DNA of 64,000 nucleotides from an uncultured delta proteobacterium (GCA_963815115.1 CAWFFN010000012.1:512001-576000), one strand, 5' to 3'; positions 27,436-53,134 are shown, counted from the first letter of the stretch. A program made the numbers and translations. The notes: generated by a model not told the origin, from the letters alone.

Positions 27436-27461
27436 CGACGAATCTCCTTCTCGACTCCGGC

Positions 27462-29203: not shown

Positions 29204-29208
29204 CCCGC

Positions 29209-30651: not shown

Positions 30652-30874
30652 CCGGGCTCGGCAGCCTTAGCCGAAGACGGGCGGGACTACCACGCGCAGA
30701 GTCACGCATCCGGCGTCGGGAGCCGTGCGCGCCGATCCAGAACAACCTGCAGTGCTGCGCGCCGTCGTCGCGGTGATGCGGGAACCGTATCTGCTGCGCC
30801 TCGGCGATTCCGGGCTCGCTGCGGAGCTGCGTCCCGGGCTTCCTGTGCATCCACTGATGGGGTCAGGGAAGCCG

Positions 30875-31166: not shown

Positions 31167-31435
31167 GCGCGACCGGTGCGTAGATCACGGAGCAGATCGA
31201 GCGTGGTCCGCCTCTTCGGCGCCGTGAACTCAGCGGCCTTGATCCGAGCGACGATGGCAAGGCGGCGCTCGTCGGTGTCGCGCTCCGCAAAGCGCTCCCG
31301 GTAGTCGTGCAGGGAGATCAGGACAGCCGCGGGCTGCCGGCCGCGCTGGACCAGGATCGGCGCACCGCCACGTTCCAGTCGCCGTAGCACCCGACCGAGC
31401 GACTGGCGCAGCTCGAGGGCGTTCACGGACTTCAT
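31163..31435 (-). CDS. Phd/YefM family antitoxin
   Basis: MKSVNALELRQSLGRVLRRLERGGAPILVQRGRQPAAVLISLHDY. Confidence 0.88.
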   Translation of the reverse strand: MKSVNALELRQSLGRVLRRLERGGAPILVQRGRQPAAVLISLHDYRERFAERDTDERRLAIVARIKAAEFTAPKRRTTLDLLRDLRTGRA

Positions 31436-31479
31436 AAGCCTGACATAGGGCTTGCACACAGCCGGGTGTCAACGTGCTG

Positions 31480-32337: not shown

Positions 32338-33056
32338 GATGCCCCTCCTTCCCGTGTGCGAACCTCGACGCGGCCGTCCGGATGGCCGACCAGCACGCGT
32401 TCGGCCGTGCCGAGGAAGAGTCCCGTGTCGACCACGCCGGGGATGGCGAGGATCGCGGTCTCGAGCTTCCGCGCCGCCGCGCCGTCGGCGAGCGCCTCGC
32501 GTGGCGCGCAGTCGAGGGTGAAGTTGCCGTTGTCGGTGCAGAACGGGGCGCCGTCGGCTCCGGGGCGAACGGTCGGCGTGAGCCCGAGCGCCCGCAGCTC
32601 GCGGGACACCAGACCGCGCGCCAGCGGAATCACCTCGACGGGGATGCGGCCGCGCTGTCCGAGTCGCTCGACGAGCTTCTCGGGACCCACCAGGATGACC
32701 TGCCGTCGCGACGCCGCCGCGACGATGCGCTCGCGCACCAGCGCGCCGCCCCATCCCTTCACCAGGTCGAGGTTGGGCGCCACCTCGTCGGCGCCGTCGA
32801 CGGTGAGGTCGAGAATCACGTTCTCGTCGAGATCGATCATCGCGATGCCGAGGGCCTCGGCCTGCCTCGCCGTGGCCTCCGAGGTCGCTGCACCGACGAC
32901 GCGCAGGCCCTGACGCACGCGGGCGCCCAGCTCGTCCACGAACGCCGCGGCGGCCCGGCCCGTGCCGAGACCCACCTTGGCGCCGTCGGTCACCATCGCG
33001 GCGGCCTGGCGAGCGACGGCGAGCACGGCGGGGTCCGGCGTCGCGGCTGGCGGCAT
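32334..33056 (-). CDS. rpiA: Ribose-5-phosphate isomerase A
   Basis: VGLGTGRAA, DLTVDGADEV, KGWGGALVRERIV, TDNGNF, IPGVVDTGLF. Confidence 0.95.
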   Translation of the reverse strand: MPPAATPDPAVLAVARQAAAMVTDGAKVGLGTGRAAAAFVDELGARVRQGLRVVGAATSEATARQAEALGIAMIDLDENVILDLTVDGADEVAPNLDLVKGWGGALVRERIVAAASRRQVILVGPEKLVERLGQRGRIPVEVIPLARGLVSRELRALGLTPTVRPGADGAPFCTDNGNFTLDCAPREALADGAAARKLETAILAIPGVVDTGLFLGTAERVLVGHPDGRVEVRTREGGAS

Positions 33057-33311
33057 GCGGTTCTCTTTAGCCTGCCTGCAGAGCCAGTACAGCCTCTCGA
33101 AACACCCGGCCGCCCGGCTCGGCGGGCTGGGCTGCTCCTCCAGAGCGGCGCCGGTGGTGGGGTTGCACGCTTCGAACGCTGCGCCACGCCGGCCACCACC
33201 GCGAGTTCCGTTGCTCCCGCGTACGCGCGCTTCTGCGCTTGCCAGTGAGGGCCGTATCGACGCAAGGAGGTCCGCGCGGGTCGAGTCTCTGCCGAAGAGG
33301 TGCCGCGGCCG

Positions 33312-35846
33312 CTACCGCGCCCACAGGATCTGCGCCGCCTCCAGCGGCACAATCGCCCCGGGGTGGTCCGGAATCACCCGCGGCGTCCAGTCGCTCGCCG
33401 GTCGCGTCGCGGCGATGCGAGCGGTGAACACGTAGCCGTTTGCGTTTCCCTCGATACGACCCGCCCGCGTCATCGCGACCAGCTCGGGCGGCCCGCCGTT
33501 GCGGCCGTCGGCGTACAGCTCGACGCGTACGGCGTCCGGGGGCAGCGTCCCGAGCTGCACGCCGACGCGATAGACGTGCGAGTCGCCGTCGCGCTCGACG
33601 TGCGTCTCGCCGTAGCGGACGCCGTGCCAGCCCTCGGCGAGCGCGTGTTGCCAGGCGACCAGCGCGGAGCCGGCCGCGCCGCGGTCCGCCGCCCGGGCGC
33701 GGTAGCGCGCCGCTGCCGGCAGGTAGTAGCCCTCGGTGTACTCGCGCACCGCGCGGCTGGCGGAGAAGCGCGGCGTGAGCTCGGCCATGCTCCGGCGCAT
33801 GCGGGCGATCCAGGCGGTCGGCACGCCATCGGCGCCACGCTGGTAGAAGTCGGGTACGACCTGCCGCTCCAGGATCTCGTAGAGGGCCTGCGCCTCGCTC
33901 GCGTCCCACGCGGGATCGTCGCCGTGCTCGCGACCGTCGCCGAGCGCCCAGCCGACCTCCGCCGAGTACGCCTCCGCCCACCAGCCGTCCAGCTCGGAGA
34001 GGTTGAGGCCACCGTTCACCAGCACCTTCATGCCGCTCGTGCCGCACGCCTCCCAGGGGCGGCGCGGCGTGTTGATCCAGACGTCCACCCCCTGCACGAG
34101 CTGCTCGGCGAGCAGCATGTCGTAGTCGGCGAGGAACACGACCGAGCGCGCGACCTCGGGCCGGCGCGTGAACTCGATCCACTGCTTCACCATGAGCTGC
34201 CCCGCCGTGTCCGCCGGGTGCGCCTTGCCCGCCACCGCGAGCTGCACCGGGCGGTCGGGGTCGGTGAGGAGCCGCACGAGGCGGTCGGGATCGTGCAGCA
34301 GGAGATTGGGCCTCTTGTAGGTCGCGAAGCGTCGCGCGAAGCCGAGCGTCAGCGCGTCGGACCGGAAGACCTGCGCCACCTCCTGCACCTCGGCCGCCGT
34401 CGCCCCGGTGGCGGCGCGCTGGCGCGACAATCGGTAGCGCACGTCTGCGACCAGCGCAGCGCGATTCGCGTTCCGCAGCCCCCACAGATCGGCGTCGCGG
34501 ACCGACTTGAGGGAGTCCGCCGGTGCGCCCTCGGGCGCGTCGACCCAGCGATTCTTGCCGCACGCGCGCGTCCAGAGGTCGTCGGCGGCCGCCGAATCCC
34601 AGCTCGGGGCGTGAACGCCGTTGGTGACGTAGCCGATCGGGATCTCGTCTCGGGGCCAGCGCGGGAACAGCGACTGGAAGATGCTGCGGCTCACCTGGCC
34701 GTGCAGACGGCTGACACCGTTGACCGCGGTGCTGCACCGCATCGCGAGGAGCGCCATGTTGAAGGCCTCGGAGGCATCGTCGGGACGCTCGCGGCCGAGC
34801 GCCAGGAGCTGCTCCACGGGGATGCCGAGTCCCTTGCGCGCGTAGCCGTCGAGCGCCCGCGCCACGAGGTCGGGCGCGAAGCGGTCGAACCCGGCGGCGA
34901 CGGGCGTGTGCGTGGTGAACACGTTGCCGCCGCGGGTGACGGCGAGCGCCACGTCGAATGGCTGGCCGGTCGTCTCCATGAAGTCGCGCGCCCGCTCCAG
35001 GACCGCGAACGCCGCGTGTCCTTCGTTCAGATGGCACACGTCGGGGTGCAGGCCGAGCCGGCGCAGCAGATGCCAGCCGCCGATGCCGAGCGCGATCTCC
35101 TGGATCAGCCGGAGCGCCGGGCCGCCGCCGTACAGCTCGCTGGTGATGCCGCGGTCGGCGGGGGTGTTGGCCGGGTCGTTCGAGTCGAGGAGATAGAGCG
35201 TCGTCCTGCCCACGCGCGCCTGCCAGGCACGCAGCCAGACTCGGCGCCCCCGCGTGGTCACCTGGAGGCGGAGCCATTCGCCGTCGGGCTCCCGCACCGG
35301 CGTGATGGGAAGGAAGGTCGGCTGGTTCGGCGGGTAGAGCGCGCGCTGCGAGCCGTCGGGTTCGATGACCTGCCGGAAGTAGCCCTCCTGGTAGAGGAGC
35401 CCGACGCCGACCACCGGCACGCCGAGATCGTGCGCCGCCTTCAGCTGATCGCCGGCGACGTTGCCGAGGCCGCCCGAGTAGATCGGGAGCGCCTCGCTCA
35501 GTCCGAACTCCATGCTGAAGTAGGCGACGCACCCGAGCGGCGCCTCCGGCTGCGTGCGCTGGAACCAGGCTGGAGCGGTGAGGTAGCTGCGGCGTCCCGC
35601 GACCAGCGCTTCGAGTCGGCTCCGGAAGGCCGGGTCGCGCAGGGCGTCTTCCAGCCGGGTCCGGGCGACGGTCTGCAGCACGAGCCACGGATTGTGGGTG
35701 AGCGCCCACAGCTCGGCGTCGAGCTGGCCCCACAGCTCGTCGGCGGAGTGCTCCCAGGTGGAGCGCAGGTCGAGCGCCAGCTCGACGAGCTGCTCGATGC
35801 CTGGCACGTCGGCGTGAGGCCAGTAGGGGGCGAGCGGGCGGTCCAT
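33312..35846 (-). CDS. glgP: Alpha-glucan (glycogen/starch) phosphorylase
   Basis: AYFSMEFG, YSGGLG, HLNEGHAAF, FARRFATYKR, EACGTSGMK. True start MDRPL at 35846; the ORF-track extension runs into frameshifted pgm. Confidence 0.95.
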   Translation of the reverse strand: MDRPLAPYWPHADVPGIEQLVELALDLRSTWEHSADELWGQLDAELWALTHNPWLVLQTVARTRLEDALRDPAFRSRLEALVAGRRSYLTAPAWFQRTQPEAPLGCVAYFSMEFGLSEALPIYSGGLGNVAGDQLKAAHDLGVPVVGVGLLYQEGYFRQVIEPDGSQRALYPPNQPTFLPITPVREPDGEWLRLQVTTRGRRVWLRAWQARVGRTTLYLLDSNDPANTPADRGITSELYGGGPALRLIQEIALGIGGWHLLRRLGLHPDVCHLNEGHAAFAVLERARDFMETTGQPFDVALAVTRGGNVFTTHTPVAAGFDRFAPDLVARALDGYARKGLGIPVEQLLALGRERPDDASEAFNMALLAMRCSTAVNGVSRLHGQVSRSIFQSLFPRWPRDEIPIGYVTNGVHAPSWDSAAADDLWTRACGKNRWVDAPEGAPADSLKSVRDADLWGLRNANRAALVADVRYRLSRQRAATGATAAEVQEVAQVFRSDALTLGFARRFATYKRPNLLLHDPDRLVRLLTDPDRPVQLAVAGKAHPADTAGQLMVKQWIEFTRRPEVARSVVFLADYDMLLAEQLVQGVDVWINTPRRPWEACGTSGMKVLVNGGLNLSELDGWWAEAYSAEVGWALGDGREHGDDPAWDASEAQALYEILERQVVPDFYQRGADGVPTAWIARMRRSMAELTPRFSASRAVREYTEGYYLPAAARYRARAADRGAAGSALVAWQHALAEGWHGVRYGETHVERDGDSHVYRVGVQLGTLPPDAVRVELYADGRNGGPPELVAMTRAGRIEGNANGYVFTARIAATRPASDWTPRVIPDHPGAIVPLEAAQILWAR

Positions 35847-35854
35847 ACGCGAAG

Positions 35855-37509
35855 TCAGCCCTCCACCACGGCGAAGGCCTCCCGGAGGATCGCGTCCGCG
35901 TCCTCCTGGATGCGGCGGAGGTGATCGGGACCGCGGAAGCTCTCGGCGTAGACCTTGTTCACGTCCTCGGTCCCCGACGGGCGGGCGGCGAACCAGCCGT
36001 GCTCGGCGATCACCTTGACGCCGCCGATCGGCGCGCCGTTGCCCGGTGCGGTGGAGAGGACCCGCTGGATGGGCTCGCCGCCGAGCTGCCGCGCGCGCAC
36101 GTGCTCCGGCGCCAGCGTGCCGAGCGCGGCCTTCTGCTCGGGCGTCGCGGGCGAGTCGGTGCGCTCGTACGCAGGCTCGCCGAACTCCCGCGTGAGCTCG
36201 CGCCAGTGCTCGCCGGGATCGCGACCCGTCCTGGCGGTGATCTCGGCGGCGAGCAGGCACGGGATGATGCCATCCTTGTCCGTCGTCCAGACCGTGCCGT
36301 CGCGCCGCAGGAACGACGCGCCCGCGCTCTCCTCGCCGGCGAAGCCGAACCCGCCGTCGAGCAGGCCCTCGACGAACCACTTGAACCCCACCGGCACCTC
36401 GACCAGCCGGCGGCCGAGCTTCGCGGCGACGCGGTCGATCATGCCGCTCGACACCACGGTCTTGCCGACGGCGGCCTTCGCCGGCCAGCCGGGCCGGTTC
36501 GCGAACAGGTACGCGATGGCAACGCTCAGGTAGTGGTTCGGATTCAGCAGCCCCTCGCTCCGGCTGACGATGCCGTGGCGATCGGCATCGGTGTCGCACG
36601 CGAAAGCGACGTCGAAGCGGTCCTTCAGCTCGACCAGGCGCGCCATGGCCCAGGGTGACGACGGATCCATGCGGATCTTGCCGTCCCAGTCGACGGTCAT
36701 GAAGCGGAAGGTCGGATCGACCGCGCGGTTCACCACCTCGAGCCGCAGCCCGTAGCGCTCGGCGATCGCGTCCCAGTAAGCCACGCTGGCGCCGCCGAGC
36801 GGATCCACGCCCAGGCGGACGCTCGCGCCGCGGACGGCGTCGAGGTCCACCACGGTGCCGAGGGAGCCGACGTAGGTCTCGAGATAGTCGTGCGGGTGCG
36901 TGGTCGCCGCCTTGCGCGCGCGCTGCGTACGGGATGCGCCGCACGCCGCGCAGGCCCTCCGCCAGCAAGCGCGTTCGCCTGCTCCTGGATCCACCCGGTC
37001 ACGCTCGTGTCGGCCGGGCCGGCCTCCGGCGGGTTGTACTTGAAGCCGCCGTCGGTGGGCGGGTTGTGCGACGGCGTGATCACGATGCCGTCGGCGCGAC
37101 CGGTGGTGCGACCGCGGTTGTAGGTGAGGATGGCGTGCGAGATCACCGGGGTCGGCGTGTAGCCGGCGGTCCGGTCGACCATGACCTCGACCTCGTGTGC
37201 GGCCAGGACCTCGAGGGCGCTCGCGAACGCGGGCTCGGAGAGGGCGTGCGTGTCGATGCCGATGAAGAGCGGGCCGTCGGTGCCCTCCTTGGCGCGATGG
37301 CGGCAGATGGCCTCGGTGGTGGCGAGGATGTGGGCCTCGTTGAAGGCGACGTCGAAGGACGAGCCGCGGTGGCCCGAGGTGCCGAACGAGACGCGCTGCG
37401 CGGGCACCGCGGGATCGGGCTGGCCCGTGTAGTACGCGGTCACCAGCCGCGGCACGTTGACCAGCAGCGCGGGGTCGGCCGGCTTGCCGGCCAGCGGGCT
37501 CGTCGCCAT
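35855..37509 (-). pseudogene. pgm: Phosphoglucomutase (alpha-D-glucose-phosphate specific), two frameshifts at ~36920-36970
   Basis: MATSPLAGK...FGTSGHRGS...ITPSHNPP; after the shifts [32 protein letters not shown]. Probably sequencing indels. Confidence 0.9.
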
Positions 37510-37513
37510 GACC

Positions 37514-37642
37514 TCAGTCCGCCCACACCGGGTCGCGCAGCGGGTTGTCCTGCAGGTGGATCTGCCCGACCACCAGGTAGTTGGCGGCGTCCCAGTACGC
37601 CTGCATGCGGGCGAGCTGCACCTCGGAAAGCGGACCTGCCAT
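37514..37642 (-). pseudogene. 42-aa remnant of phosphoketolase (Xfp/XpkA)
   Basis: GAGGAG RBS, then [35 protein letters not shown], matching the phosphoketolase N-terminal motif YWRAANYLSVGQIYLxDNPL. Confidence 0.8.
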
Positions 37643-37670
37643 CGTTCTCCTCGGGGGTTCTCCGGGCGGG

Positions 37671-39749
37671 CTACTTCGTGGCGCGCGCGCGGGCGAGCTG
37701 CTCTCGTGCCGCCTCGAGCACGCGGTCGGGAGTGAAGCCGAACTTCTTGAGGAGCTGCTTGAGCGGCGCCGAGGCACCGAAGGTGTGCATGCCGATGCTC
37801 TCCCCGTGGGTTCCCACGTAGCGGCTCCAGCCGAGCGTCGACGCCTGCTCGACCGAGACGCGCGCGGTGACCTCCGGCGGCAGGACCGAGTCGCGGTACT
37901 CCTGCGGCTGGCGGTCGAACAGCTCGAGGCACGGCATGCTGACCACGCGCGCCCGCACGCCCTCCTTGACGAGCTGCTCGTAGGCGCCGACGCACAGGCT
38001 CACCTCGCTCCCGGTGGCGAGCAGCAGGACCTCCGGCTGGCCGCCCGGGGCGTCCGCGAGCACGTAGGCTCCCCGCGCGACCCCCGACGCGGCCGCGTAG
38101 CGCGTGCGATCGAGCGTGGGCAGCGCCTGGCGGCTGAGGATCATCGCGACCGGCTCGTGCCGCAGCTGCATGACGGTGCGCCAGGCCTCGACCACCTCGT
38201 TGGCATCCGCGGGCCGGATGGTGAGCAGCCCCGGGATGGCGCGCAGGGACGCCAGGTGCTCGACCGGCTGGTGCGTAGGACCGTCCTCGCCCACACCGAT
38301 CGAATCGTGGGTGAAGATGAAGATGACCGGGATCTCCATGAGCGCCGCCAGCCGGATGGTGGGCCGGCAGTAGTCGCTGAAGATCAGGAATCCCGACCCG
38401 AACGGACGGACCTTGGTGAGCGCCATGCCGTTCACGATCGCACCCATGGCGTTCTCGCGGATGCCGAAGTGGAAATTCCGGCCGCCGGGGTCCGCGGCGG
38501 AGAGATCGCCGGCCCCTTCGAAGGTGAGGCGGGTCTTCGTCGACGGCGACAGGTCGGCGGCGCCGCCGAGCAGCCACGGCACGTGCTGCGCGAGCGTGTT
38601 GAGCACCTTGCCCGAGGACTCGCGGCTGCCGAGCCCCTTGGCATCGGTCGGGAACGGCGCCAGGCCCGCGTCCCAGCCCGCGGGCAGCTCGCGGCGCTGC
38701 ATGCGTTGCATCTGATCGGCCAGGTCCGGGAACTGCGCCCGGTACGCCTCGACCTTGTCGGCCCAGGCTTCGCGGAGCCCGCGCCCGCGCCTGCCCACGC
38801 CGGCGGCGAAGTGCTCGCGCACGCCGTCGGGGACGAGGAACTGCGCGTCCTCGGGCCAGCCGTAGGATCGCTTGGCCAGCCGCACTTCCTCCTCACCCAG
38901 CGGCTCGCCGTGAGCGGCGCTGGTGTCCTGCTTGTGGGGCGCGCCGTAGCCGATGTGGCTGTCCACGATGAGCAGCGTCGGCCGGTCGGTCGTGCGCTTG
39001 AAAGTGGCAAAGGCGCGCTCGAGCATGTCGAGGTCGTTGGCGTCGCCCACGCGTACCACGTTCCACCCGTATGCCAGGAAGCGGCAGGCGACGTCGTCGC
39101 TGAATGTGAGATCCGTGTGACCTTCTATGGTCACGTGGTTGTTGTCGTAGATCCAGCACAGGTTCGGGATGCGCAGGTGGCCGGCGAACGACGCGGCCTC
39201 GTTCGAGATGCCCTCCATCATGCAGCCGTCGCCGCACAGCGCGTAGACGTCGAAGTCGAAGAGGTCGAAGCCGGGCCGGTTGAAGTGCCGCGCCATCCAG
39301 CGCCCGGCGACGGCCATGCCGACGCTGTTGGAGACGCCCTGGCCGAGCGGCCCGGTGGTGCACTCGACCCCGGAGACGATGTGGTACTCCGGGTGACCCG
39401 GGCAGCGGCTGCCGAGCTGGCGGAAGCTCTTGATGTCGTCGAGCGACACGGAGGGTTGGCCGAGCACCTCGTAGTCGGGATCGACGGCCTGCACCCCGGT
39501 CAGGTGAAGCAGGGAGTAGAGGAGCATGGACGCGTGACCCGCGGAGAGCACGAACCGGTCTCGGTTGGGCCAGATCGGATCGCTCGGGTCGAAGCGCAGG
39601 AAGCGCTGCCAGAGACAGTACGCCACGGGCGCCATGCCCATGGGCGTGCCGGGGTGACCGGACTCGGCCTTCTGGACGGCGTCGATGCAGAGGGTGCGAA
39701 TCGTGTTGACGCACAGCCGGTCGAGGTCGTGCGGATCGCTCTGGGGCAC
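37671..39749 (-). CDS. tkt: Transketolase
   Basis: [54 protein letters not shown]. Confidence 0.97.
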
Positions 39750-43894: not shown

Positions 43895-44749
43895 GTGGCA
43901 ACGCAGACGAGAGTCATCGCCGGCGCTCAGGGCGCGGAGCTTTTCCGCGACCCGCGACGCACGCTGAAGCCGCGCAAGACCGGCCTCACGCAGGTGCTCG
44001 ACAAGGGTCTCTCGATCGCCGAGGCCGAAGGCATGCTCGAGGTGGCCGAAGGGTACGTCGACTTCGTGAAGTTCGGCTGGGCCACCTCGGTGGTGGTGGA
44101 GAACTTCGAGGCCAAGCTCGAGACATTTCGCCGCCACGGCATCGACGTGTGCTGCGGCGGCAGTCTCTTCGAGCTCGCCGTGCACCGCAAGCAGCTGAAG
44201 GAGTACATCGCCTTCCTGCTCGATCACGGGTTCAAGTTCGTCGAGGTCTCCGACGGCACCATCGTGATCCCGCTTGCCGAGAAGCTCCGCTACATCGAGC
44301 GTATGGCGAAACACTTCACGGTGTTCTCCGAGGTCGGGCGCAAGGATCGTACCCACGTCGTCGCGCCGCGGCGCTGGGTCGATCAGATCAAGAGCGAGCT
44401 GGGGGCAGGGGCGTGGAAGGTGATCGTCGAGGGGCGCGAATCGGGGACCGTCGGAATCTACTACTCGTCGGGAGAGATCAAGGCAGGCCTGATCGACGAG
44501 ATCCAGATGCAGATCGAGACGAGCCGCATCATATTCGAGGCGCCTCGAAAGCCCCAGCAGGTATGGTTCATCAAGCACTTCGGTCCAAACGTGAATCTCG
44601 GCAACATCCCGCCCGAGGACGTGATCTCGGTCGAGACCATCCGTCAGGGGCTGCGCGCCGACACCTTGCTGTTCGATCATGATGGTCATCCGTCGCCACC
44701 GACTGCTCAGCGGCGCACGGGAAGCCCGCGGCGTCGCGGTCGTCATTGA
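43895..44749 (+). CDS. comA: Phosphosulfolactate synthase
   Basis: KPRKTGLTQVLDKG, VDFVKFGWATS, GGSLFE, EVSDG, SEVGRK, EGRESG, IIFEAP...QQVWFI...GPNVNLGNI...ETIRQGLRADT. Confidence 0.93.
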   Translation: MATQTRVIAGAQGAELFRDPRRTLKPRKTGLTQVLDKGLSIAEAEGMLEVAEGYVDFVKFGWATSVVVENFEAKLETFRRHGIDVCCGGSLFELAVHRKQLKEYIAFLLDHGFKFVEVSDGTIVIPLAEKLRYIERMAKHFTVFSEVGRKDRTHVVAPRRWVDQIKSELGAGAWKVIVEGRESGTVGIYYSSGEIKAGLIDEIQMQIETSRIIFEAPRKPQQVWFIKHFGPNVNLGNIPPEDVISVETIRQGLRADTLLFDHDGHPSPPTAQRRTGSPRRRGRH

Positions 44750-45371
44750 CGTCTTCCGGGCTTTCAGCACCGCCGCCTATGCCTTCGAGCGGGGCGCGAC
44801 CGAGGTGGTGCTGGTCGGGCCCGTCGAGGATGCCTTCGCGCTCCGCCGGCGATGGCCGGATGCGCTCATCATGGGCGAGGTGGACGGCCGGCGCGTCGAG
44901 GGATTCGACTTCGGCAACTCGACGAGCGTCATCGCGCACGCCGAGCTGCGCGGCCGGCGGCTGATCCAGCGCACCAGCGCCGGCACCCAGGGCGTGCTCG
45001 CGGCACGGGGGGCCGACGAGATCGTGCTCGGGAGCTTCGTGTGCGCCGGCGCGATCGTGCGCCACGTCCGGCGGCGCGACCCGGCGGAGCTCTCCCTGGT
45101 CGCCATGGGGGTCCGGGGCGAGCGCCCGGCCGCCGAGGACGAGGCCTGCGCCGATCTGCTCGAGGCGCGCCTCGACGGGACGCCGCTCGACGAGGCCGCG
45201 CTGCTCCACCGCCTCGAATGCGGCGGCGCGGGCGAGCGCTTCGAGGAGGACTCGGACGACTTCCCACGCGCCGACGTGCCGCACTGTCTCAGGCTGGATG
45301 CGTTCGACTTCGTGCTCACGGTGGCGCGTCGGGACGGGCTTCTGGTCGCCACGCCGCAGGCGGTTCCGTGA
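44679..45371 (+). CDS. comB: 2-phosphosulfolactate phosphatase
   Basis: VVIDVFRAFST, GEVDG..VEGFDFGNS, RTSAGTQG, EDEACA; overlaps the comA end. Confidence 0.9.
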   Translation: MMVIRRHRLLSGAREARGVAVVIDVFRAFSTAAYAFERGATEVVLVGPVEDAFALRRRWPDALIMGEVDGRRVEGFDFGNSTSVIAHAELRGRRLIQRTSAGTQGVLAARGADEIVLGSFVCAGAIVRHVRRRDPAELSLVAMGVRGERPAAEDEACADLLEARLDGTPLDEAALLHRLECGGAGERFEEDSDDFPRADVPHCLRLDAFDFVLTVARRDGLLVATPQAVP

Positions 45372-45428
45372 TCGATTGCCCGATTGGTTGACCACCGACG
45401 GCAGGCAGACGTACATTCCGCCGCCGCG

Positions 45429-46661
45429 ATGCAGCGAGGACCGGAGGGAAGTGGCGCACAGCTCGTTGCGCCGGCGGGCGATGCCGCTTCCCGGCGCGTC
45501 CTCTTCCTGGAGAGCAGCGTCGGCGGGGGCGTGATCGGCGGCTCCCTGACCGGCATCCTCGAGCTGCTGCCGCACCTCGATCGCGCCCGCTGGAATCCGG
45601 CGCTCGTGCTGGCGGAGCCGAAGCCCGCCCTCGACCCCGCAGGCGTTCCGGTGCACGTCCTGACCCCGCGGCGCGGCTCGGGAGGGGTGGACCGTGGCGC
45701 GCTGCCGGTGCGCGTGCTGCGCCGGGCATCGGAGGTGCTGGGGATCGTGGCGCCGCGCGCCCGCGAGCTGCTGCCGCTCTTCCGTCGCGAGCGGCCCGCG
45801 CTGGTCTATCTGGCGAGCGGTCTCACCTCGAATCTGGCCGGGGTACTGGCCGCCGCTCGTTGCGGTGTCCCGGTGGTGTGCCATTTCAAGGGCTTCCGGC
45901 GCGTGGGACCCGTCGATCGATTCTGCTCGCGCTGGATCGACACCGCCGTCTGCATGACCGACGAGATCTCCGAGCACTATCGCAGCCGGCGCATTCATGC
46001 GCGCCGCTTCGTCACCATCTACGACGGCATCGACGTCGCCCGCTTCGCGAGTGGGGGTGGCGCGACCGTCCGGCGCGAGCTCGACATCCCGGCGGCGGCG
46101 CCGCTGGTCGCCATCGTGGGCCACGTGCAGGAGTGGAAGGGCCAGCTCCTGGTGGCTGAGGCGGTCGCGCGGGCGCGCCGGCGCATCCCCGAGCTGCGCT
46201 GTCTGATCGTCGGCGGCATTCATCGGCTCGGCGCGGAGTACGGCGAGCGCCTGAAAGAACGCGTGGCGGCTCCCGACCTGGCCGGTCACGTGCTGCTCAC
46301 CGGCGCCCGGCGCGACGTCGCCGCCTGCATGGACGCAGCCGACCTCGTGATCCACGCCTCCAATCGTGAGCCCTTCGGGCGCGTCCTCCTCGAGGCCATG
46401 GCGGCGAGCCGTCCGGTGATCGCGCCCCGCGAAGGCGGACCGCGCGAGATCGTCGTCGACGGCAAGACGGGCGTGCTGGTGCCGCCGCGCGACCCCGAGG
46501 CGCTCGCCTCGGCGATGGTCGCGCTGCTCGAGGACCCGGCGCGGCGTGCCGCCATCGCACGCGCCGCCCGCACGCGCGTGGCGGAGGTCTTCGACATCAG
46601 CCGGCATGCGCGCGCAATCGAGGCCCTGTTCGACGACGTCGCGTCCCGGGTGCCGGCATGA
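45429..46661 (+). CDS. Glycosyltransferase family 4
   Basis: VGHVQEWKGQ, SNREPFGRVLLEAMAASRPVI, GGPREIVVDGKTG. Confidence 0.92.
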   Translation: MQRGPEGSGAQLVAPAGDAASRRVLFLESSVGGGVIGGSLTGILELLPHLDRARWNPALVLAEPKPALDPAGVPVHVLTPRRGSGGVDRGALPVRVLRRASEVLGIVAPRARELLPLFRRERPALVYLASGLTSNLAGVLAAARCGVPVVCHFKGFRRVGPVDRFCSRWIDTAVCMTDEISEHYRSRRIHARRFVTIYDGIDVARFASGGGATVRRELDIPAAAPLVAIVGHVQEWKGQLLVAEAVARARRRIPELRCLIVGGIHRLGAEYGERLKERVAAPDLAGHVLLTGARRDVAACMDAADLVIHASNREPFGRVLLEAMAASRPVIAPREGGPREIVVDGKTGVLVPPRDPEALASAMVALLEDPARRAAIARAARTRVAEVFDISRHARAIEALFDDVASRVPA

Positions 46662-47878
46662 GCAGCCGGCGCAAGGTCCTCGTGCTCGGCAAGAGCGACT
46701 CGAGCTTCCTGACCGTCATCCGGTCGCTCGGCCGCCAGGGCATCGAGGTCCACATCGCCTGGTGCCCGTCCATCGAGGTCGCCCGTCGGTCGCGCTACGT
46801 GCACACGGTTCACGAGCTGCCGCCGTTTCGCCCCGGCGACGACGCATGGAAGTGGGCGTTCCTCGATCTCTGCGAGCGTGAGCGCTTCGATCTCGTGATC
46901 CCGACCAACGATCCGACCATCATCCCGTTGCAGGAGCACCGCTCCGATCTCGAGCCGCACGCGCGCATCTACCTGCTGAACGAGCGCGCCTACCGCGTGG
47001 GCTACGACAAGCAGCGCAGCTACGAGGTCTGTCGCGAGATCGGCGTCCGGGTCCCGAATCACCTCATCCTGCCCGTGCCGGCCGAGCCGGCGGATGTGCT
47101 GCGCGAGTTCTCGCTACCCGTGGTGGTGAAGGCGCGCTCGTCGTTCCGCTCGGAGGATCTCGGCGATCGGCGCCGCACGCGCGTGGCGCGCGATCCGGAC
47201 GCGCTTCGCCAGTGGCTGCACGTCCTGATCGGTCGCGCCGACGAGGTGCTCATCGAGGAGTACTTCGAGGGAGAGGGCGGCGGCATCGACCTGCTGTGCG
47301 CCGACGGCCAGGTGCTGCACGCCTTCCAGCACCTCCGGCTGCACGAGGGTCGCGGCTACTCGTCGGCGCCGTACCGGCTGAGCGAGCCGGTGCACCAGGG
47401 GATGCTGGCCGACGCGCGCAAGTTCGTGCGCGCGCTCGACTACACGGGCGTCCTGATGATGGAGTTCCGCATCAATCGCGCGACCGACCAGTGGCTGTTC
47501 CACGACTTCAACGCGCGCTTCTGGGCGGCGCTGCCGCTCACCGTCGCGTCGGGCGCGGACTATCCGTACTGGCTCTACCAGGTGCTGGTCGAGGGAAAGC
47601 GCGACTTCCCCGCGGAGTATCGGTCCGGAATCTCCTGCCGCAACTGGCGCCTCGACCTGCTCTGGGTGAAGGAGAACTTGTCGCTGCCGCGCCACGAACG
47701 CACGCCCGTGCGCGAGCTGGCGAAGGAGGCCTGGCGCTTCGTCACCCTGCGCGAGTGGAGCGACACGCTGGTGCGCGACGATCCCGTGCCGGGCCTCGTC
47801 GACCTGTCGCGCATCGCCGGCCGGCTCGGCCGCACCATCGGCCGCGGCGGGCGGCTGTTCCCCTCGTCGGCGAGATAG
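46658..47878 (+). CDS. ATP-grasp (carboxylate-amine ligase) family protein
   Basis: IRSLGRQG, SRYV, VIPTND, DKQRSY, PVVVKAR, LIEEYFEG, YTGVLMMEFR, FNARFW; ATGA-coupled to GT4. Confidence 0.85.
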   Translation: MSSRRKVLVLGKSDSSFLTVIRSLGRQGIEVHIAWCPSIEVARRSRYVHTVHELPPFRPGDDAWKWAFLDLCERERFDLVIPTNDPTIIPLQEHRSDLEPHARIYLLNERAYRVGYDKQRSYEVCREIGVRVPNHLILPVPAEPADVLREFSLPVVVKARSSFRSEDLGDRRRTRVARDPDALRQWLHVLIGRADEVLIEEYFEGEGGGIDLLCADGQVLHAFQHLRLHEGRGYSSAPYRLSEPVHQGMLADARKFVRALDYTGVLMMEFRINRATDQWLFHDFNARFWAALPLTVASGADYPYWLYQVLVEGKRDFPAEYRSGISCRNWRLDLLWVKENLSLPRHERTPVRELAKEAWRFVTLREWSDTLVRDDPVPGLVDLSRIAGRLGRTIGRGGRLFPSSAR

Positions 47879-47954
47879 CCCGGCAGCGAGCTCCCGTTCC
47901 CGCACCCGCTCTGCCTCCTTGACGCCGGGGCGGAGTGCCTCGTACGCCGGCGGC

Positions 47955-48749
47955 ATGAGCACGCTCGATGAGAGCCCGGTTCCGGACTATCCCGCGCTCG
48001 TTCGCCTCGACGGCCGCGGCTTCATCGTCGCCGGCGCGGGCCAGGGCATCGGCAGGCAGACGGCCCACGCCCTTGCGGCGGCCGGGGCACGGATCGTGTG
48101 CGCCGACGCCGACCGCGAGCGTGCAGAGGCCGTCGCGGCCGAGGTGCGAGGCGCGGCGTGGGTGGGCGACGTGCGAGACCGGGCCGCGGTCGAGGGGCTC
48201 GTCGCCGGTGCCGGGCGCACGCTCGGGCCCCTCGACGGCCTGATCGACATCGTCGGCGAAGCCCGCTTCGGTCCGTTCCTCGATTGCACCGACGAGGACT
48301 GGGACTGGAGCTTCGGGATGGTACTGCGTCACGCGTACCTGGCGGCGCAGATCGCGGGTCGCGCCATGGCCGATCGTGGCGGGGTGATGGTCTTCGTGGC
48401 GTCGGTGAGCGGGCTCACCAGTGCGCCGCGCCATGCCGCGTACGGAGCCGCCAAGGCGGCCCTCATGTCCCTCGTGCGCACGGTTGCGGTGGAGCTCGGA
48501 CCGCGCGGGGTTCGCGTCAACGCCGTGGCGCCGGGTGCGGTGTGGACGCCGCGTGTCGCCGCGCTTCTCGGCGAGGAGGGCAGGGCGCGCAACCTCGCCA
48601 ACGCCCCGTTGCGCCGGATCGGAACTCCCGCTGACGTGGCGAGCACCATCCTGTTTCTCGCCTCGGACCTGTCGTCCTATCTGACCGGCCAGACGCTCGT
48701 GCTCGACGGCGGCGTCGGTGCCAAGTTTCCCTATCCCTCCGGGGCGTGA
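47955..48749 (+). CDS. SDR family oxidoreductase
   Basis: GAGQGIG, YGAAKAA, RVNAVAPG, LTGQTLVLDGG. Confidence 0.92.
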   Translation: MSTLDESPVPDYPALVRLDGRGFIVAGAGQGIGRQTAHALAAAGARIVCADADRERAEAVAAEVRGAAWVGDVRDRAAVEGLVAGAGRTLGPLDGLIDIVGEARFGPFLDCTDEDWDWSFGMVLRHAYLAAQIAGRAMADRGGVMVFVASVSGLTSAPRHAAYGAAKAALMSLVRTVAVELGPRGVRVNAVAPGAVWTPRVAALLGEEGRARNLANAPLRRIGTPADVASTILFLASDLSSYLTGQTLVLDGGVGAKFPYPSGA

Positions 48750-48859
48750 GGCGAAGGCGCCGGTCGACGACGCGGGCACGTGCTGGGCGGCGACGTTCTC
48801 CACCGCCAGATCGAACGACGGGACGGCGTTCGAGGCGAAGACGAGCTGAGACTCGGCCG

Positions 48860-50200
48860 CTACGCGGCCTTCCCACCCTGCAGGCGCGCGGCCATGCGGC
48901 GCGCCGCGCGCGCCATCTCGCCGATCTCCGCCGGCCGGACGAGCAGCGTCTCCAGGACGGAGTGCCCCGAGTCGCGCACGAAGGCGACGAGCAGCACGAG
49001 CGCGGCGGTGCCGTAGGACAGGCCGTTGGCGAGCGCGGCGCCGGAGATGCCGTAGCGCGGGATGAGGAAGATGTTCAACGTCACGTTGAGCGTGAGGGCG
49101 AGGCAAGCGGCCAGGATGTTGATCTCCTGCTTGCCCCGGCTGGTGAAGTTCCGGGTGAGCAGCTGGTAGAGCGCCATCATGAGCAGGCCGGGCAGGAGGA
49201 TGAGCAGCGGCTTGATGGCGCCGTCGTAGCGGTGACCGTAGAGGATGGGGATCAGGAGGGGGCCGCCGACGGCGAATCCCAGGACGCCGAGGGCGAGGAT
49301 GAAGAGCGTGGAGCGGGTGACGCGCGTGGTGGCGGCGTGGGCGTCGCGATCGGCGGAGCCGGCCAGGCGCGGGAACATCACGGTGCCGGTCGCCTCCGGA
49401 ATCTTGAGGAGCAGGCTGCCGAAGTTGACCGCGATCGCGTAGAGGCCGACCTGGGCGGGGGGCAGGAAGAAGGCGCAGATGTACTGGTCGATGCGCAGGT
49501 GGAGCGTCGCCGCCAGCGTCTGCACGTAGGACTTGCTGCCGAACGACAGCATCCCGCGGGCGAGCGGCCGGTTCCAGTGCAGGTGCAGCGGCGCTTCACG
49601 GTGCACCCGCCAGGTCATCCACAGCGTCATGAAGACCTGGATCACGACCTGCACGATGACCGCGCCGACGAGCCCCATGTGGAGCAGCACCAGCGTGATC
49701 AGGAGGCCGACCAGGCTGAGCACGTTCGGCACGATCTGGCGGACGTTGTATTCGCGGAAACGCTCCTGCGCCTGCGCGACGCCCAGCAGATAGAACTGGA
49801 GCGTGACGAACGGGATCAGCGCCAGCGAGGGCGGGATGAGCGACGGGGGCGTGTCCTTCAGGAACTTCGCGATCAGCCAGTCGCGGCCGAGGTAGCACAC
49901 CAGCGCGGCAACGGTGCCGCTGACGAAGGCGAACCAGATCGAGTTCGATGCGACGTCCGACGCGGACGCCCCGCGCCGCCGCATGTAGTACACGCTTGCC
50001 TGCGGGATGCCGAGCTTGACGAAGTTCGACAGCATGATCGGCAGCAGCACGAGGAGCTGGAAGCGGCCGCGATCGGCCGGCCCGAGCCAGCGCGCCGTGA
50101 TGATGCCGTTCACGATGCCGATGGCCATCATGGCCACCTGACCGCCGAGGACCTGGAGTGAGTCTGCGGCGAAGTGCCGGCGGGCCTTGTGCTCAGCCAT
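48860..50200 (-). CDS. Wzx-like flippase / polysaccharide biosynthesis protein
   Basis: ARWLGPADRG, LHLRIDQ, VGLYAIAV, LIPRYGISGAALA; many TM segments. Confidence 0.9.
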   Translation of the reverse strand: MAEHKARRHFAADSLQVLGGQVAMMAIGIVNGIITARWLGPADRGRFQLLVLLPIMLSNFVKLGIPQASVYYMRRRGASASDVASNSIWFAFVSGTVAALVCYLGRDWLIAKFLKDTPPSLIPPSLALIPFVTLQFYLLGVAQAQERFREYNVRQIVPNVLSLVGLLITLVLLHMGLVGAVIVQVVIQVFMTLWMTWRVHREAPLHLHWNRPLARGMLSFGSKSYVQTLAATLHLRIDQYICAFFLPPAQVGLYAIAVNFGSLLLKIPEATGTVMFPRLAGSADRDAHAATTRVTRSTLFILALGVLGFAVGGPLLIPILYGHRYDGAIKPLLILLPGLLMMALYQLLTRNFTSRGKQEINILAACLALTLNVTLNIFLIPRYGISGAALANGLSYGTAALVLLVAFVRDSGHSVLETLLVRPAEIGEMARAARRMAARLQGGKAA

Positions 50201-52073
50201 GCGAGCTCTCCGCGGCGCCAGGCGGGAGTGCGTAGAGGGCGGACCCGCCGGCACGCACCACGGGAGCGCCTGCCCGGTCGAGGAACGCCCGCCACAGCCC
50301 GGTGACCTGGGCCTCGTAGGGATCGCCGGCCGCCTTCAGGTCGTTCTCATCCACGGCGACGTGCGTCGCGCCGAGCCGGCGGGCTGCGTCGCCGAGAGCA
50401 TCGACCGTGTTCACGTGCCGGTAGTCGACGAGACCCTGCTCGAGGTAGCTCATCAGCACGAAGGGCCGCTCGATGAAGTAGGGGTGGGGGATCTTCTCGA
50501 ACACGAGCACGCGTCCGGTCGCGGGGATGGCCTGGTTGGCCTGGTGCCAGAAGACATAGCGGTCCGAGTAGCGGGAAAGGAAGACCTCGGGGGCGAGGCG
50601 CCCGAAGGCGACGCGCACCTGGTCCGGCCACATGGGGCGGAGCATGCGGCTCACGAGGAGCAGGTTGCCGCCGACGGTGACCGCCACCACCAGACAGAAC
50701 AGGCGCCGCCCGCACAGCGCCCGCGCCGCCGGCGTCGCGGCCGCGATCAGGAGCGCGAGCCCGGGAAGCACGTAGCGCGGGTGCGCCCACGCCCCGACTG
50801 CGATGATCGCGACGTAGCCGGCTCCGATCGCGGCCACCGCCAGCGCGGCGCCCCGTCGCTCCCGGAGCAGGACCAGCGCCGGGAGGAAGGCCAGGCTCCA
50901 CGGGCTCGTGTCCTGTCCCTGTCGCTTGCCCTTCTCGAACGACTCCGGATGCATGGTGAGATCCCACGGGAAGCGCGCCACCTCGGTGCCCCGGTAGGGC
51001 TTGCCGCCGCGCTGCGAGGCCTCCGTGGTGCGGTACTGGTCGTAGTACAGGTCGAGATACGCGGCCGCCTCGGTACTCCAGTTGCGCCCCGCGAACACCC
51101 TCTGGCCGAAGGGGTAGAGAGGATTTCCGGTCTCGACCAGGTTGCGTACGTACCAGGGCGAGAGCAGCACGAGCGCGAGCACGCCGAAGCTCAGCGCGGC
51201 GCCGCCGGCGCGTCCGAGCGCGAGGCGGCGGCGGGCGAGGACGGCGAGGACGCCGATGCCCACCAGCGTCGGCACGAGCAGCGCCATGATCTTGGAGCCG
51301 CCCGCGAGACCGGCCATGATGCCCGCGCGTCGCAGGTCGCCCGCCCGCTCGCTGCTTGCCCAGTCGAGCAACGCCGAGACGGCGAGCGCGGCGTAGAGCA
51401 CCACGCTCGTGTCGGTTCCTGCGCGGGTCATCTGCGACCAGCACATCCCGGTGGTGAAGAACACGGCGCCGGCGACGGCTCCCAGCCGATCACCGAGATG
51501 GCGGCGAGTGAGCGTCGCCAGGGCGAGCGCAGCCATCACGCCGGCGACGGCGTTCAGCAGCCGCGCCAGGACGTCGCCGCGCAGCGCGAAGGCGATCGTG
51601 AAGAGAAAGTTCTCGAGCCACTGCTGCTGTCCCCAGAAGGTCCAGGGTGTGGGCACGAGGCCGCCGGCGAGCGCGTAGAGCCGCGGGTAGACGAGATGGT
51701 ACTTCTCCTGGTCGCCGCCCACCGGCGGCGCGAACCACGTCGGCGCCTCGATGAGCAGCAGCAGGGCACAAGCGGCCACGAGAACCCACGTCATGAGCCC
51801 GCGCGGCGCGCGCACCGCGCGCAGGGCAGCGATGAGAGGCGAGCCGCCCGCGACGAGCGCGATCGCGCCCGCGATCGCGAGGGGCAGGGGGCGGAGCACT
51901 CCGGCGGCGGCGAGCCCGAGCCCGACCAAGCTGGCCAGCCCGAGGCCGGTGGCGAGGCCCGCCAGCAGATGCTCGTGGGGCTGGTTCGGCAGCGCGCTCG
52001 CGGCGCGCAGCGCGAGCAACCCGGCCGCGGCGCTGGCTGCGAGCACCGCGAGCAGCAGGAGCAGATCGATCAC
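50193..52073 (-). CDS. GT-C fold (ArnT/PMT-like) membrane glycosyltransferase
   Basis: PPVGGDQEKYHL, AGLAGGSK, LSPWYVRNLVETGNPLYPF, RYVLP; polytopic. GTG start at 52073. Confidence 0.8.
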   Translation of the reverse strand: MIDLLLLLAVLAASAAAGLLALRAASALPNQPHEHLLAGLATGLGLASLVGLGLAAAGVLRPLPLAIAGAIALVAGGSPLIAALRAVRAPRGLMTWVLVAACALLLLIEAPTWFAPPVGGDQEKYHLVYPRLYALAGGLVPTPWTFWGQQQWLENFLFTIAFALRGDVLARLLNAVAGVMAALALATLTRRHLGDRLGAVAGAVFFTTGMCWSQMTRAGTDTSVVLYAALAVSALLDWASSERAGDLRRAGIMAGLAGGSKIMALLVPTLVGIGVLAVLARRRLALGRAGGAALSFGVLALVLLSPWYVRNLVETGNPLYPFGQRVFAGRNWSTEAAAYLDLYYDQYRTTEASQRGGKPYRGTEVARFPWDLTMHPESFEKGKRQGQDTSPWSLAFLPALVLLRERRGAALAVAAIGAGYVAIIAVGAWAHPRYVLPGLALLIAAATPAARALCGRRLFCLVVAVTVGGNLLLVSRMLRPMWPDQVRVAFGRLAPEVFLSRYSDRYVFWHQANQAIPATGRVLVFEKIPHPYFIERPFVLMSYLEQGLVDYRHVNTVDALGDAARRLGATHVAVDENDLKAAGDPYEAQVTGLWRAFLDRAGAPVVRAGGSALYALPPGAAESSHG

Positions 52074-52153
52074 GACGACCCCCGGAGGTAGCCGAGCCAG
52101 TAGATCGCGTAGATCGCCGCGGCCCAGACGGCGAGCACCAGCCGGAGGATCAC
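52070..52153 (-). CDS. Putative 27-aa single-TM peptide coupled to the GT-C gene
   Basis: MILRLVLAVWAAAIYAIYWLGYLRGSS; its TGA overlaps the GTG of the next gene (GTGA). Confidence 0.45.
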   Translation of the reverse strand: MILRLVLAVWAAAIYAIYWLGYLRGSS

Positions 52154-52314
52154 GGCGGCGCTCCGGCGAGGGGCTCCTGGGGGCACATGGGCGCGGGAGA
52201 ATAGCGGGAAGCCTCCCGGATGACGAGAGCAACGAAGCCCGCTTACGTTGTGGCACCTGCGGGGGTCCAGCGACGCTGTTCCCAATCCCGACGGTGCCCG
52301 CGTATACTGCGCCG

Positions 52315-52722
52315 GTGACCGCCATTGACGACATCCGCGGCGTACTGGATCAGCGCGACGATGTCCGCCTCGCGTACGTCTTCGGTTCCGTCGCCCGCGG
52401 GCACGCCCGGCCCCGCAGTGACGTCGACGTGGCGGTGCTCTTCGAGGGGGAGGCCACGCCGGGGGTGCTGGACCATTTCACCGAGGACCTCGAAGACGCT
52501 GCGGGCCGACGGGTCGATCTCATCGATCTCGCGACGGCTCCTCCCCTTCTGGCGCATCAGGTCGTGTCCACGGGCACCTGCATCGTGTGTCGCAACCCGA
52601 GGGAGCGTGCGTCCTTCGAGACCAGGACCGTCATCCGCTATCTCGACACTGCGCATCTCCGAAAGCTCCAGCACAGGTATCTCGCCAAACGCGTACAGGC
52701 GCGTCATGACGATCGAGCCTGA
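52315..52722 (+). CDS. mntA: MNT nucleotidyltransferase antitoxin (MntA-like)
   Basis: AYVFGSVARG..RPRSDVDVAV (GSX10DXD); TATACT 6 nt before the GTG suggests a leaderless transcript. Confidence 0.9.
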   Translation: MTAIDDIRGVLDQRDDVRLAYVFGSVARGHARPRSDVDVAVLFEGEATPGVLDHFTEDLEDAAGRRVDLIDLATAPPLLAHQVVSTGTCIVCRNPRERASFETRTVIRYLDTAHLRKLQHRYLAKRVQARHDDRA

Positions 52723-53134
52723 CGTCGTCAGGCGCAAGCTTCTCGAGATCAACGAGGCCACGGGGCACCTGCGTTCGTGGATCCCGGTTACAATCGAGCG
52801 GCTCGAGACGGACCAGCAACTCCGCTGGGCCGTCGAGCGGGGCCTGCAGGTCGCCGCCGAGGCGCTTTTCGACGTCGGGGCGCACATTCTTACAGCCGAA
52901 TTCCAGGAGGCTGTGGACGAATACCGGCACATTCCGAAGCGACTCCTAGCCCGAGGCGTCCTGTCGTCGGAGACCGCTGCAAAGCTGAAAGGCCTCGCCG
53001 GCTTTCGCAATGTCCTTGTGCACGAGTACGCCGAGATCGACCTGAAGCGCGTTCACGCTGGGCTCGAGCGACTCGGCGACTTCGACGCGTTCGTCTCGGA
53101 CGTGGAGCGCTGGCTGCAAGAGAGGACGGGGTGA
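52706..53134 (+). CDS. hepT: HEPN (DUF86) RNase toxin (HepT-like)
   Basis: AVERGLQVAAE, GFRNVLVHEY (RX4HXY). Confidence 0.9.
   Translation: MTIEPDVVRRKLLEINEATGHLRSWIPVTIERLETDQQLRWAVERGLQVAAEALFDVGAHILTAEFQEAVDEYRHIPKRLLARGVLSSETAAKLKGLAGFRNVLVHEYAEIDLKRVHAGLERLGDFDAFVSDVERWLQERTG

Follow-up and report, generated by a model that had tools for sequence, protein, structure and literature searches.

A block of six genes in a 64,000-nucleotide window of the genome of an uncultured delta proteobacterium (G000:C12:512001-576000; the window is the whole stretch of DNA that was analysed) may well build a sulfonated surface glycoconjugate in which sulfolactate is attached to an exported sugar chain. 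This reading, to which we assign a probability of about 0.55, was drawn from sequence comparisons of the genes for phosphosulfolactate synthase (comA), a 2-phosphosulfolactate phosphatase family protein (comB), a GT4 glycosyltransferase, an ATP-grasp ligase, a Wzx-type flippase, and a membrane glycosyltransferase of the GT-C fold. The host, a soil bacterium, is represented by a metagenome-assembled genome with 12 contigs and a size of 6.9 Mb, at 100% completeness and 2.98% contamination, whose relatives are labeled Binatia, delta proteobacterium, or Thermodesulfobacteriota in public records.

ComA is predicted to add sulfite to phosphoenolpyruvate (PEP), giving 2-phospho-3-sulfolactate by the established chemistry of its family, and ComB to strip the 2-phosphate, again by family chemistry, with (R)-3-sulfolactate as the predicted product of the pair. 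At the cytoplasmic face of the membrane, the GT4 enzyme would add a sugar to a carrier-linked precursor, and the ATP-grasp enzyme would turn the carboxylate of sulfolactate into an acyl phosphate and couple the acid to that sugar, most likely as an amide to a sugar amine and possibly as an ester. The decorated lipid-linked unit would be flipped by Wzx, as its family and conserved co-location suggest, and transferred by the GT-C enzyme to a final acceptor outside the membrane. We infer from gene linkage that sulfolactate is the substrate of the ligase, to which ComA and ComB would supply a new acid, its own ancestry being phosphatase-fused. The carboxylate of sulfolactate is the likely handle, because a carboxylate and a sulfonate are all that the products predicted for the ComB, HAD, and lyase variants described below have in common, and because ComA is fused to adenylation and carrier-protein domains in Legionella records.

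The plus-strand genes are tightly packed. The comB gene overlaps the 3' end of comA by 71 nt, the GT4 gene begins after a gap of 12 nt, and the GT4 stop and the ATP-grasp start share an ATGA, an overlap of 4 nt. The comA/comB overlap and the ATGA coupling had both been described in a first-pass annotation made from the sequence alone, and reading the two junctions directly bore them out. The GT-C gene lies upstream of wzx in one minus-strand unit that faces the plus-strand genes. Pfam, NCBIfam, and the translations confirmed all seven genes that the annotation had placed here. Its GT-C gene stands, but not the end at 52153, which reflects a later start, as the longest open reading frame (ORF) reaches 52334. 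The seventh gene, an SDR oxidoreductase that the annotation had counted into the gene set, is not a core part of the block because it is missing from all four related genomic loci (L002, L003, L004, and L055). An SDR gene with 36% identity precedes GT4 in the sister locus L072.

A single-protein contig scan with the ATP-grasp ligase found three close relatives, and the order comA, comB, GT4, ATP-grasp, wzx, and GT-C was kept in all three genus-level loci (L002-L004) at 71-88% protein identity. Gene calls in related loci came from codon-usage or longest-ORF scripts, which are error-prone, and only ORFs confirmed by Pfam or tblastn were used. Among 401 genomes sampled from the class, the ligase had a match at E <=1e-30 in 22 and at no less than 75% identity in 5. 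ComA was found about 2.7 kb away on the same contig in each of these five, and comAB was linked to GT4, ATP-grasp, Wzx, and GT-C in all of them, which answers the linkage check that the first-pass annotation had proposed. The six genes were also kept in G491, a genome of another genus, at 64-77% identity and between wholly different flanks, one of which carries genes for a sigma-54 regulator, a histidine kinase, and a radical SAM protein, and the other genes for a Y-family polymerase and a thiolase. Three metagenome contigs (L074, L075, and L078) repeat the arrangement. Neither ComA nor this ligase occurred in G507, a genome of the same genus as the host that is 94% complete, or in most genomes of the family, and the block is therefore accessory. 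Without the SDR, the six genes form one accessory, horizontally mobile block that has moved together between genomic contexts.

ComA matched PF02679 with 285.2 bits (cut-off 25.2) over profile positions 2-243 of 243. It narrowly missed the cut-off of the archaeal equivalog TIGR03849 (262 vs 280 bits) and therefore belongs to a bacterial branch of the ComA family. Its matches in the PDB were the phosphosulfolactate synthase 1u83 (E 8.2e-57) and 1qwg (E 1.7e-46). ComB matched PF04029 with 133.9 bits (cut-off 26.4), covering profile positions 11-171 of 226 only, stayed below all NCBIfam equivalog cut-offs (best NF002057, 99 vs 235 bits), and matched 2yyv in the PDB (E 1.6e-15). The genome carries a single copy of each gene. 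Besides the Legionella records, ComA fusions seen elsewhere (proteins P0121-P0148) joined it to ComB in many cases, to the TauE sulfite exporter family, to FAD_binding_2, and to an LPG_synthase_TM membrane domain, where the ComA part was 56% identical.

The ligase resembles several Pfam ATP-grasp families at the margin, with 25.5 bits against a cut-off of 29.1 for PF15632, 23.8 against 27 for PF02222, and 20.4 against 19.8, just above, for PF02786. Its AlphaFold2 model reached a mean predicted local distance difference test (pLDDT) of 92.2, and Foldseek matched the model at a probability of 1.0 to biotin carboxylase, PylC, L-amino-acid ligases, PurK, and 2pn1 (template-modeling (TM) score on target 0.78). 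Past the close relatives, the next homologues are 42-54% identical and about 570 residues long, with a C-terminal low-molecular-weight phosphatase domain (LMWPc, PF01451) whose C-x5-R-S loop is intact. GT4 genes 58-65% identical to that of the window directly precede these phosphatase-fused relatives. At eight loci of the same family, fused or unfused relatives of the ligase follow a GT4 gene with 54-65% identity and are not accompanied by comA or comB, and the genomes holding these loci have no ComA at all. The tree of the ligase family was a quick IQ-TREE run on 86 rows, with one duplicate and one row of less than 380 residues dropped from 88, midpoint rooting, and SH-aLRT support. The comAB-linked ligases formed one clade of eight rows (support 100), with the unfused, comAB-less ligase of L072 as its sister (support 99), and the two together fell within the phosphatase-fused enzymes of the same bacterial family (support 97). 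The LMWPc fusion was present in 60 of the 86 rows, and by these sequence comparisons the ligase branched off from a large family whose members mostly carry a fused low-molecular-weight phosphatase.

The wider ligase family sits in exopolysaccharide and other glycan loci. Clustering of the neighbors in 33 long metagenome loci found GT4 genes in 21, sugar epimerases or dehydratases in 7, GT2 in 6, and AsnB-type amidotransferases in 5, while Wzx-like and UDP-glucose dehydrogenase genes occurred in 4 loci each and DUF3473 deacetylases and FemAB-like acyltransferases in 3 each. Wzt and PIG-L genes were present as well. A gene of about 340 codons without a Pfam family occurred in 33 of 102 ligase-family loci, mostly ending at the ligase start (e.g., L127:7137-8150), and was absent from the window and its closest relatives. 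The AlphaFold2 model of its product (pLDDT 87.7) was most similar to polysaccharide deacetylases and ArnD (8t0j, E 1.2e-9; TM 0.47-0.64), and the Pfam deacetylase model touched 3 of 15 members of this protein family. Single-linkage clustering had put the gene forward as a second ATP-grasp, a candidate rejected with an hhalign probability of 1% and the deacetylase-like predicted fold. The ligase relatives carry their own phosphatase domain and lie beside a deacetylase-like gene in exopolysaccharide loci, which suggests a role of the family in the N-acylation of sugars by small acids that are phosphorylated at first. Ligase and phosphatase were further joined to GT4 in one cluster (P0151, 942 residues) and to a FemAB-like domain in five (P0152-P0156, 940-1100 residues). 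Large multi-span ORFs near fused modules (L057, L062, and L072) had no Pfam match even at E up to 1. A LarA-like (Lar_N) gene was found directly before a GT4 and ATP-grasp-phosphatase pair at L061:5134-6384, with a weak partial Pfam match (E 7e-10) that hints at a 2-hydroxy acid as the acid used there.

The gene-neighborhood survey proposed in the first-pass annotation was carried out at two ranks, and the pairing of ComA with an ATP-grasp enzyme, often with Wzx and GT4, was found again elsewhere in the class, in families other than that of the host, and once in a different lineage, within an exosortase polysaccharide locus. ComA was present in 73 of the 401 class genomes, a tally that includes the unpublished genomes G570, G758, and G779, which were used for this count only. 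The 20 best-scoring ComA loci outside the clade of the window (L158-L177; class Binatia, other families) were compared. A homologue of the ATP-grasp ligase was found in 19 of them (exception L177; hhalign probability 98.9), a homologue of the window Wzx (23-41%) in nine, and GT4 in nine, while ComB and the window GT-C were found in none of the 20. An argininosuccinate-lyase-like (XcbC-like) gene stood beside ComA in 15 loci, a HAD hydrolase with a D-2-hydroxyacid dehydrogenase in 6, and a fumarate-reductase-like flavoprotein in 5. By their gene content, these ComB-less variants may attach acids of the sulfoacrylate or sulfopropionate type. One such variant cassette spans L175:273-13287, where a single ORF of 803 residues (L175:4393-6804, minus strand), directly following ATP-grasp and ComA, encodes a Wzx-type flippase fused to a FemAB-like (Acetyltransf_6) domain.

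The lyase-ComA pair of the 15 class loci mirrors, by analogy, the XcbC-XcbB pair of the bacterial coenzyme M pathway of Xanthobacter autotrophicus, which makes sulfoacrylic acid (PMC9457059). A ComA homologue followed by a second, phosphate-removing enzyme is common to that pathway and to the loci studied here. The window differs in having ComB instead of the lyase, and the class loci combine the lyase-ComA pair with ATP-grasp, Wzx, and glycosyltransferases, not with XcbD, XcbE, and XcbA. A broader modular reading is put forward tentatively, at a little under even odds, under which Binatia would modify the glycans that they export with C3 sulfonates, carbon-bonded and derived from PEP and sulfite. 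ComA and ATP-grasp would be the constant parts and the second enzyme exchangeable, the options being ComB, a HAD phosphatase paired with a 2-hydroxyacid dehydrogenase, or an XcbC-like lyase paired with a fumarate-reductase-like flavoprotein. Across these variants, the group attached would be sulfolactyl, sulfopyruvate-derived, sulfoacryloyl, or sulfopropionyl. The window block would be a hybrid under the same joint reading, its ligase and GT4 recruited from a lineage of phosphatase-fused enzymes that N-acylate sugars after their de-acetylation.

A sample of 401 genomes from the phylum had ATP-grasp matches in 52 and ComA in 47, with both in six genomes and never close together. None of 20 ComA loci from this sample had a tblastn match to the window GT4, ATP-grasp, Wzx, or GT-C. 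This result was set aside as a refutation of the pairing because the query was too distant, and a member of the ligase family was found by profile comparison in L052. That locus contains, in this order, an exosortase, an EpsI-like gene, two FemAB-like genes, a DegT aminotransferase, a deacetylase-like gene of 340 residues (L052:4412-5368), and a GT2, and continues with a UDP-GlcNAc 2-epimerase, ComA, a B12-radical SAM gene, ComB, a protein of 411 residues, and further glycan genes. The 411-residue protein aligned with the ligase family over columns 15-403 at an hhalign probability of 98.4. A conserved operon of QueH, ComA, ComB, a two-subunit thiamine pyrophosphate decarboxylase, and a radical SAM gene was observed in other families of the phylum (L035, L037, L038, and L054); it resembles a pathway of the coenzyme M or sulfoacetaldehyde type, with no ComC in the part of these loci that was covered.

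Both GT-B halves of the GT4 enzyme scored above their cut-offs (PF00534, 127 bits; PF13439, 45 bits). Its nearest NCBIfam and PDB matches include the small-acceptor enzymes MshA, BshA, TreT, and sucrose-phosphate synthase, and it stayed below the equivalog cut-offs of BshA (83 vs 273.7) and MshA (104 vs 462.5), with coverage mainly of residues 192-419. Among five ComA-bearing genomes of other families, the best genome-wide GT4 match lay near ComA in two. The flippase scored 76.8 bits against PF13440 (cut-off 23) and has 11 hydrophobic segments in a simple hydropathy scan. In all five of those genomes the best match anywhere to the window Wzx (36-38%, E 1e-78 to 1e-86) was the Wzx of the ComA locus, and the next Wzx-like genes reached 24-26% only. 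The GT-C enzyme scored 31.8 bits against PF13231 (cut-off 26.1), with 10 hydrophobic segments in the hydropathy scan. The Atlas clusters nearest to it carry PMT_2 and DUF8201, and the gene was kept in L002-L004 and L055.

Several observations weigh against a sulfolactate-decorated glycan. The block has no initiating phosphoglycosyl transferase and no polymerase, nor a deacetylase or aminotransferase that would yield a free sugar amine, and in the whole window Pfam annotation showed neither an initiating sugar-phosphate transferase nor a polymerase, and neither a chain-length regulator nor a sugar aminotransferase. The deacetylase-like gene of the wider family is likewise not in the block, and genome-wide it had only a weak partial match (E 2.9e-7). 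The Foldseek matches of the ligase reflect the generic ATP-grasp fold only and carry no hint of the substrate. Its closest phosphatase-fused relatives in the same family are two-gene modules without obvious glycan genes nearby, and these modules, standing among unrelated genes, keep a soluble glycoside in play as the product. As the L072 ligase has neither a phosphatase domain nor comAB, ComB is not a simple replacement for a lost phosphatase domain. The GT4 orthologue lies away from ComA in three of the five other-family genomes that carry ComA, and no GT-C orthologue was found in these five, GT-C being confined to the clade of the window. Pfam annotation covered 13 of the 20 phylum ComA loci, and 12 of these 13 serve other ends, either in a ComDE-type operon or in apparent breakdown.

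The chemistry could run with the opposite polarity, the ATP-grasp enzyme activating a carboxylate of the glycan (e.g., of a uronic acid) and the 2-hydroxyl of sulfolactate attacking it to form an ester. VanA-type ligases form esters in this way, with a 2-hydroxy acid (D-lactate) as the nucleophile. Such a reaction would need no free sugar amine, UDP-glucose dehydrogenase genes lie near fused relatives in 4 of the 33 loci, and the ATP-grasp enzyme of Campylobacter jejuni activates the carboxylate of the sugar and not that of the small molecule (PMC11800379). This polarity is nevertheless unlikely, since no uronic-acid gene was annotated in the block, it is the carboxylate of the acid itself that is activated where ComA is fused to adenylation and carrier domains, and the XcbC-like lyase of 15 of the 20 class loci would, by analogy with the pathway in PMC9457059, make sulfoacrylate, which has no hydroxyl for the attack. 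It also seems improbable that the product is a soluble small molecule, a sulfonated compatible solute or cofactor-like compound for which GT4 would glycosylate the 2-hydroxyl of free sulfolactate and the ATP-grasp enzyme would then amidate the resulting glycoside. BshA acts on malate and glucosylglycerate synthases on phosphoglycerate, and sulfolactate resembles both malate and 3-phosphoglycerate. The small-acceptor enzymes among the nearest GT4 matches speak for this product, as do pairs of a 58-65% identical GT4 and an ATP-grasp-phosphatase that stand alone among unrelated genes at no fewer than seven loci of the same family; a glycosyltransferase, a phosphatase, and a ligase would form a self-contained solute pathway. 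Yet the MshA and BshA matches are far below cut-off and mainly concern the donor-binding half, the lyase variants would lack the needed hydroxyl, and the wider ligase family is found in exopolysaccharide loci. Wzx and GT-C, moreover, travel with the block across genera, and a Wzx orthologue stands in the ComA locus of all five other genomes.

The two halves of the block might also be mere neighbors without a shared product, comAB making free sulfolactate as an osmolyte or store, as happens in Bacillus spores, or running in reverse and breaking it down, next to unrelated glycan genes. Some phylum ComA loci are ComDE-linked and several look catabolic, with Tct transporters, GntR, a LarA-like gene, and sulfite reductase, all of them without glycan genes, and the ComA of SAR11 is read as catabolic in PMC11796062. 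We consider this quite improbable given the overlaps and the short gap from comA through ATP-grasp, the joint movement of the six genes between genomic contexts, and the co-occurrence of ComA and ATP-grasp in 19 of 20 class loci; window annotation found no transporter, regulator, or desulfonating enzyme in the block. That the block performs the first steps of coenzyme M biosynthesis is very improbable and already largely refuted, even if the PEP-dependent pathway of methanogens starts with ComA and ComB as its first two enzymes (PMC9457059). The first-pass annotation had reported no other coenzyme M genes in the window, where indeed no comC, comD, or comE was found, and its proposed check for a full pathway elsewhere came back negative, with no Ldh_2/ComC match in the 100% complete genome. 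The only ComDE-like match was below cut-off (TIGR03845, 108.7 vs 147.95; TIGR03846, 160 vs 221.5). The match is ambiguous with phosphonopyruvate decarboxylase, and these genes lie on another contig directly after a PEP mutase-nucleotidyltransferase gene, which assigns them to that phosphonate enzyme and not to ComDE. No XcbC-like lyase stands beside comA here, and the family search could not exclude Xcb-type genes elsewhere in the genome. The phosphonate-type cluster itself (G000:C9:173000-177500; L157:3062-7433) consists of a B12-radical SAM gene, a fused PEP mutase-nucleotidyltransferase gene, and a two-subunit phosphonopyruvate-decarboxylase-like enzyme.

The proposed sulfolactate decoration has partial counterparts in known systems. 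In the Arn pathway of lipid A aminoarabinose, the deformylase ArnD frees the amine of a polyprenyl-carried sugar at the inner face, and after flipping the sugar is passed on by a GT-C of the PMT/ArnT type. The PMT_2 match of the window GT-C and the predicted ArnD-like fold of the gene product beside the ligase relatives recall this pathway, whereas the block has no ArnD-like gene and its flippase is of the Wzx type, not ArnE/F. YitD and YitC of Bacillus subtilis have a role in spore sulfolactate. Sulfolactate is a free solute or an intermediate in that system and in methanogen coenzyme M synthesis, and a proposed building block here. The methanogen pathway (ComA, ComB, ComC, and ComDE) shares the ComA and ComB families and the predicted (R)-sulfolactate (PMC9457059), but ComC and ComDE are not in the host, where the genes are embedded with GT4, ATP-grasp, Wzx, and GT-C. 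The glucuronamide tailoring of the C. jejuni HS:2 capsule (PMC11800379) has in common an ATP-grasp enzyme in a glycan locus, a small, initially phosphorylated molecule, and a phosphatase step. The C-terminal ATP-grasp domain of Cj1438 amidates the sugar, the phosphatase Cj1435 then removes the phosphate, and the next glycosyltransferase depends on the decoration of the sugar. The likeness runs through the relatives of the window ligase, which carry their own phosphatase domain. It is one of pathway logic only, because Cj1438C is described as a TupA-like ATP-grasp and the window ligase had no TupA-like Pfam match at E up to 0.01. The capsule system has the sugar carboxylate activated, an amine as the small molecule, a HAD phosphatase, and no sulfonate, in contrast to the small acid without an amine and the LMWPc domain or ComB here.

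A literature search that took in papers and not their supplements returned none on sulfolactate in glycans or with ATP-grasp ligases, and a sulfolactyl or related C3-sulfonate acyl decoration of glycans is not described in the literature searched. Known sulfonated glycans carry sulfate esters or sulfoquinovose. New here are the descent of the ligase from a family fused to a phosphatase, the finding that the second enzyme can be exchanged, and the Wzx partner that is conserved. If the broader modular reading is correct, such decorations would represent a new class of permanently anionic glycan modification and an unrecognized sulfite sink in soils. A sulfolactyl or related group on a glycan would also mean a third role for ComA besides coenzyme M synthesis and spore sulfolactate. 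The surface would carry strong-acid charge at any pH that sulfatases could not remove, which in soil bacteria would matter for metal binding, for desiccation, and for recognition by phages or predators. The large, unstudied family of ATP-grasp-phosphatase fusion enzymes in exopolysaccharide loci is a further lead.

The window has a G+C content of about 70% and therefore numerous spurious ORFs; frames were kept only with Pfam support and coding-type codon bias. A listing of 21 sequencing runs contained no RNA run, and every DNA run in it that matched had less than 0.2 of the words in common. Coordinates are given in Table 1.

Table 1. Genes of the block and the accessory SDR gene, in window positions, with supporting matches.
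Feature	Position	Strand	Support
comA, phosphosulfolactate synthase	43895-44749	+	PF02679 E 5.2e-85
comB, 2-phosphosulfolactate phosphatase family	44679-45371	+	PF04029 E 6.2e-39
GT4 (GT-B, retaining) glycosyltransferase	45384-46661	+	PF00534 E 5.5e-37, PF13439 E 1.6e-11
ATP-grasp carboxylate ligase, candidate sulfolactate ligase	46658-47878	+	weak Pfam ATP-grasp matches, AlphaFold2 fold
SDR oxidoreductase, accessory	47919-48749	+	PF13561 E 5.3e-61
Wzx-type MOP flippase	48860-50254	-	PF13440 E 2.2e-21, PF01943, MurJ
GT-C fold membrane glycosyltransferase (PMT_2 / DUF8201 type)	50193-52334	-	PF13231 E 1.9e-7

On its upstream side the block is preceded by pentose-phosphate genes and by genes for a HAD hydrolase, an Amidohydro_2 protein, and a DUF4126 protein, together with an ORF that belongs to no family. 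The pentose-phosphate and sugar-phosphate genes form a run at 22280-39749, with pgi, transaldolase, glucose-6-phosphate dehydrogenase, a sugar MFS transporter, rpiA, a phosphoglucomutase-like gene, and transketolase. At the downstream border, an MNT (Polbeta nucleotidyltransferase) and HepT toxin-antitoxin pair (52243-53134) adjoins the GT-C gene.

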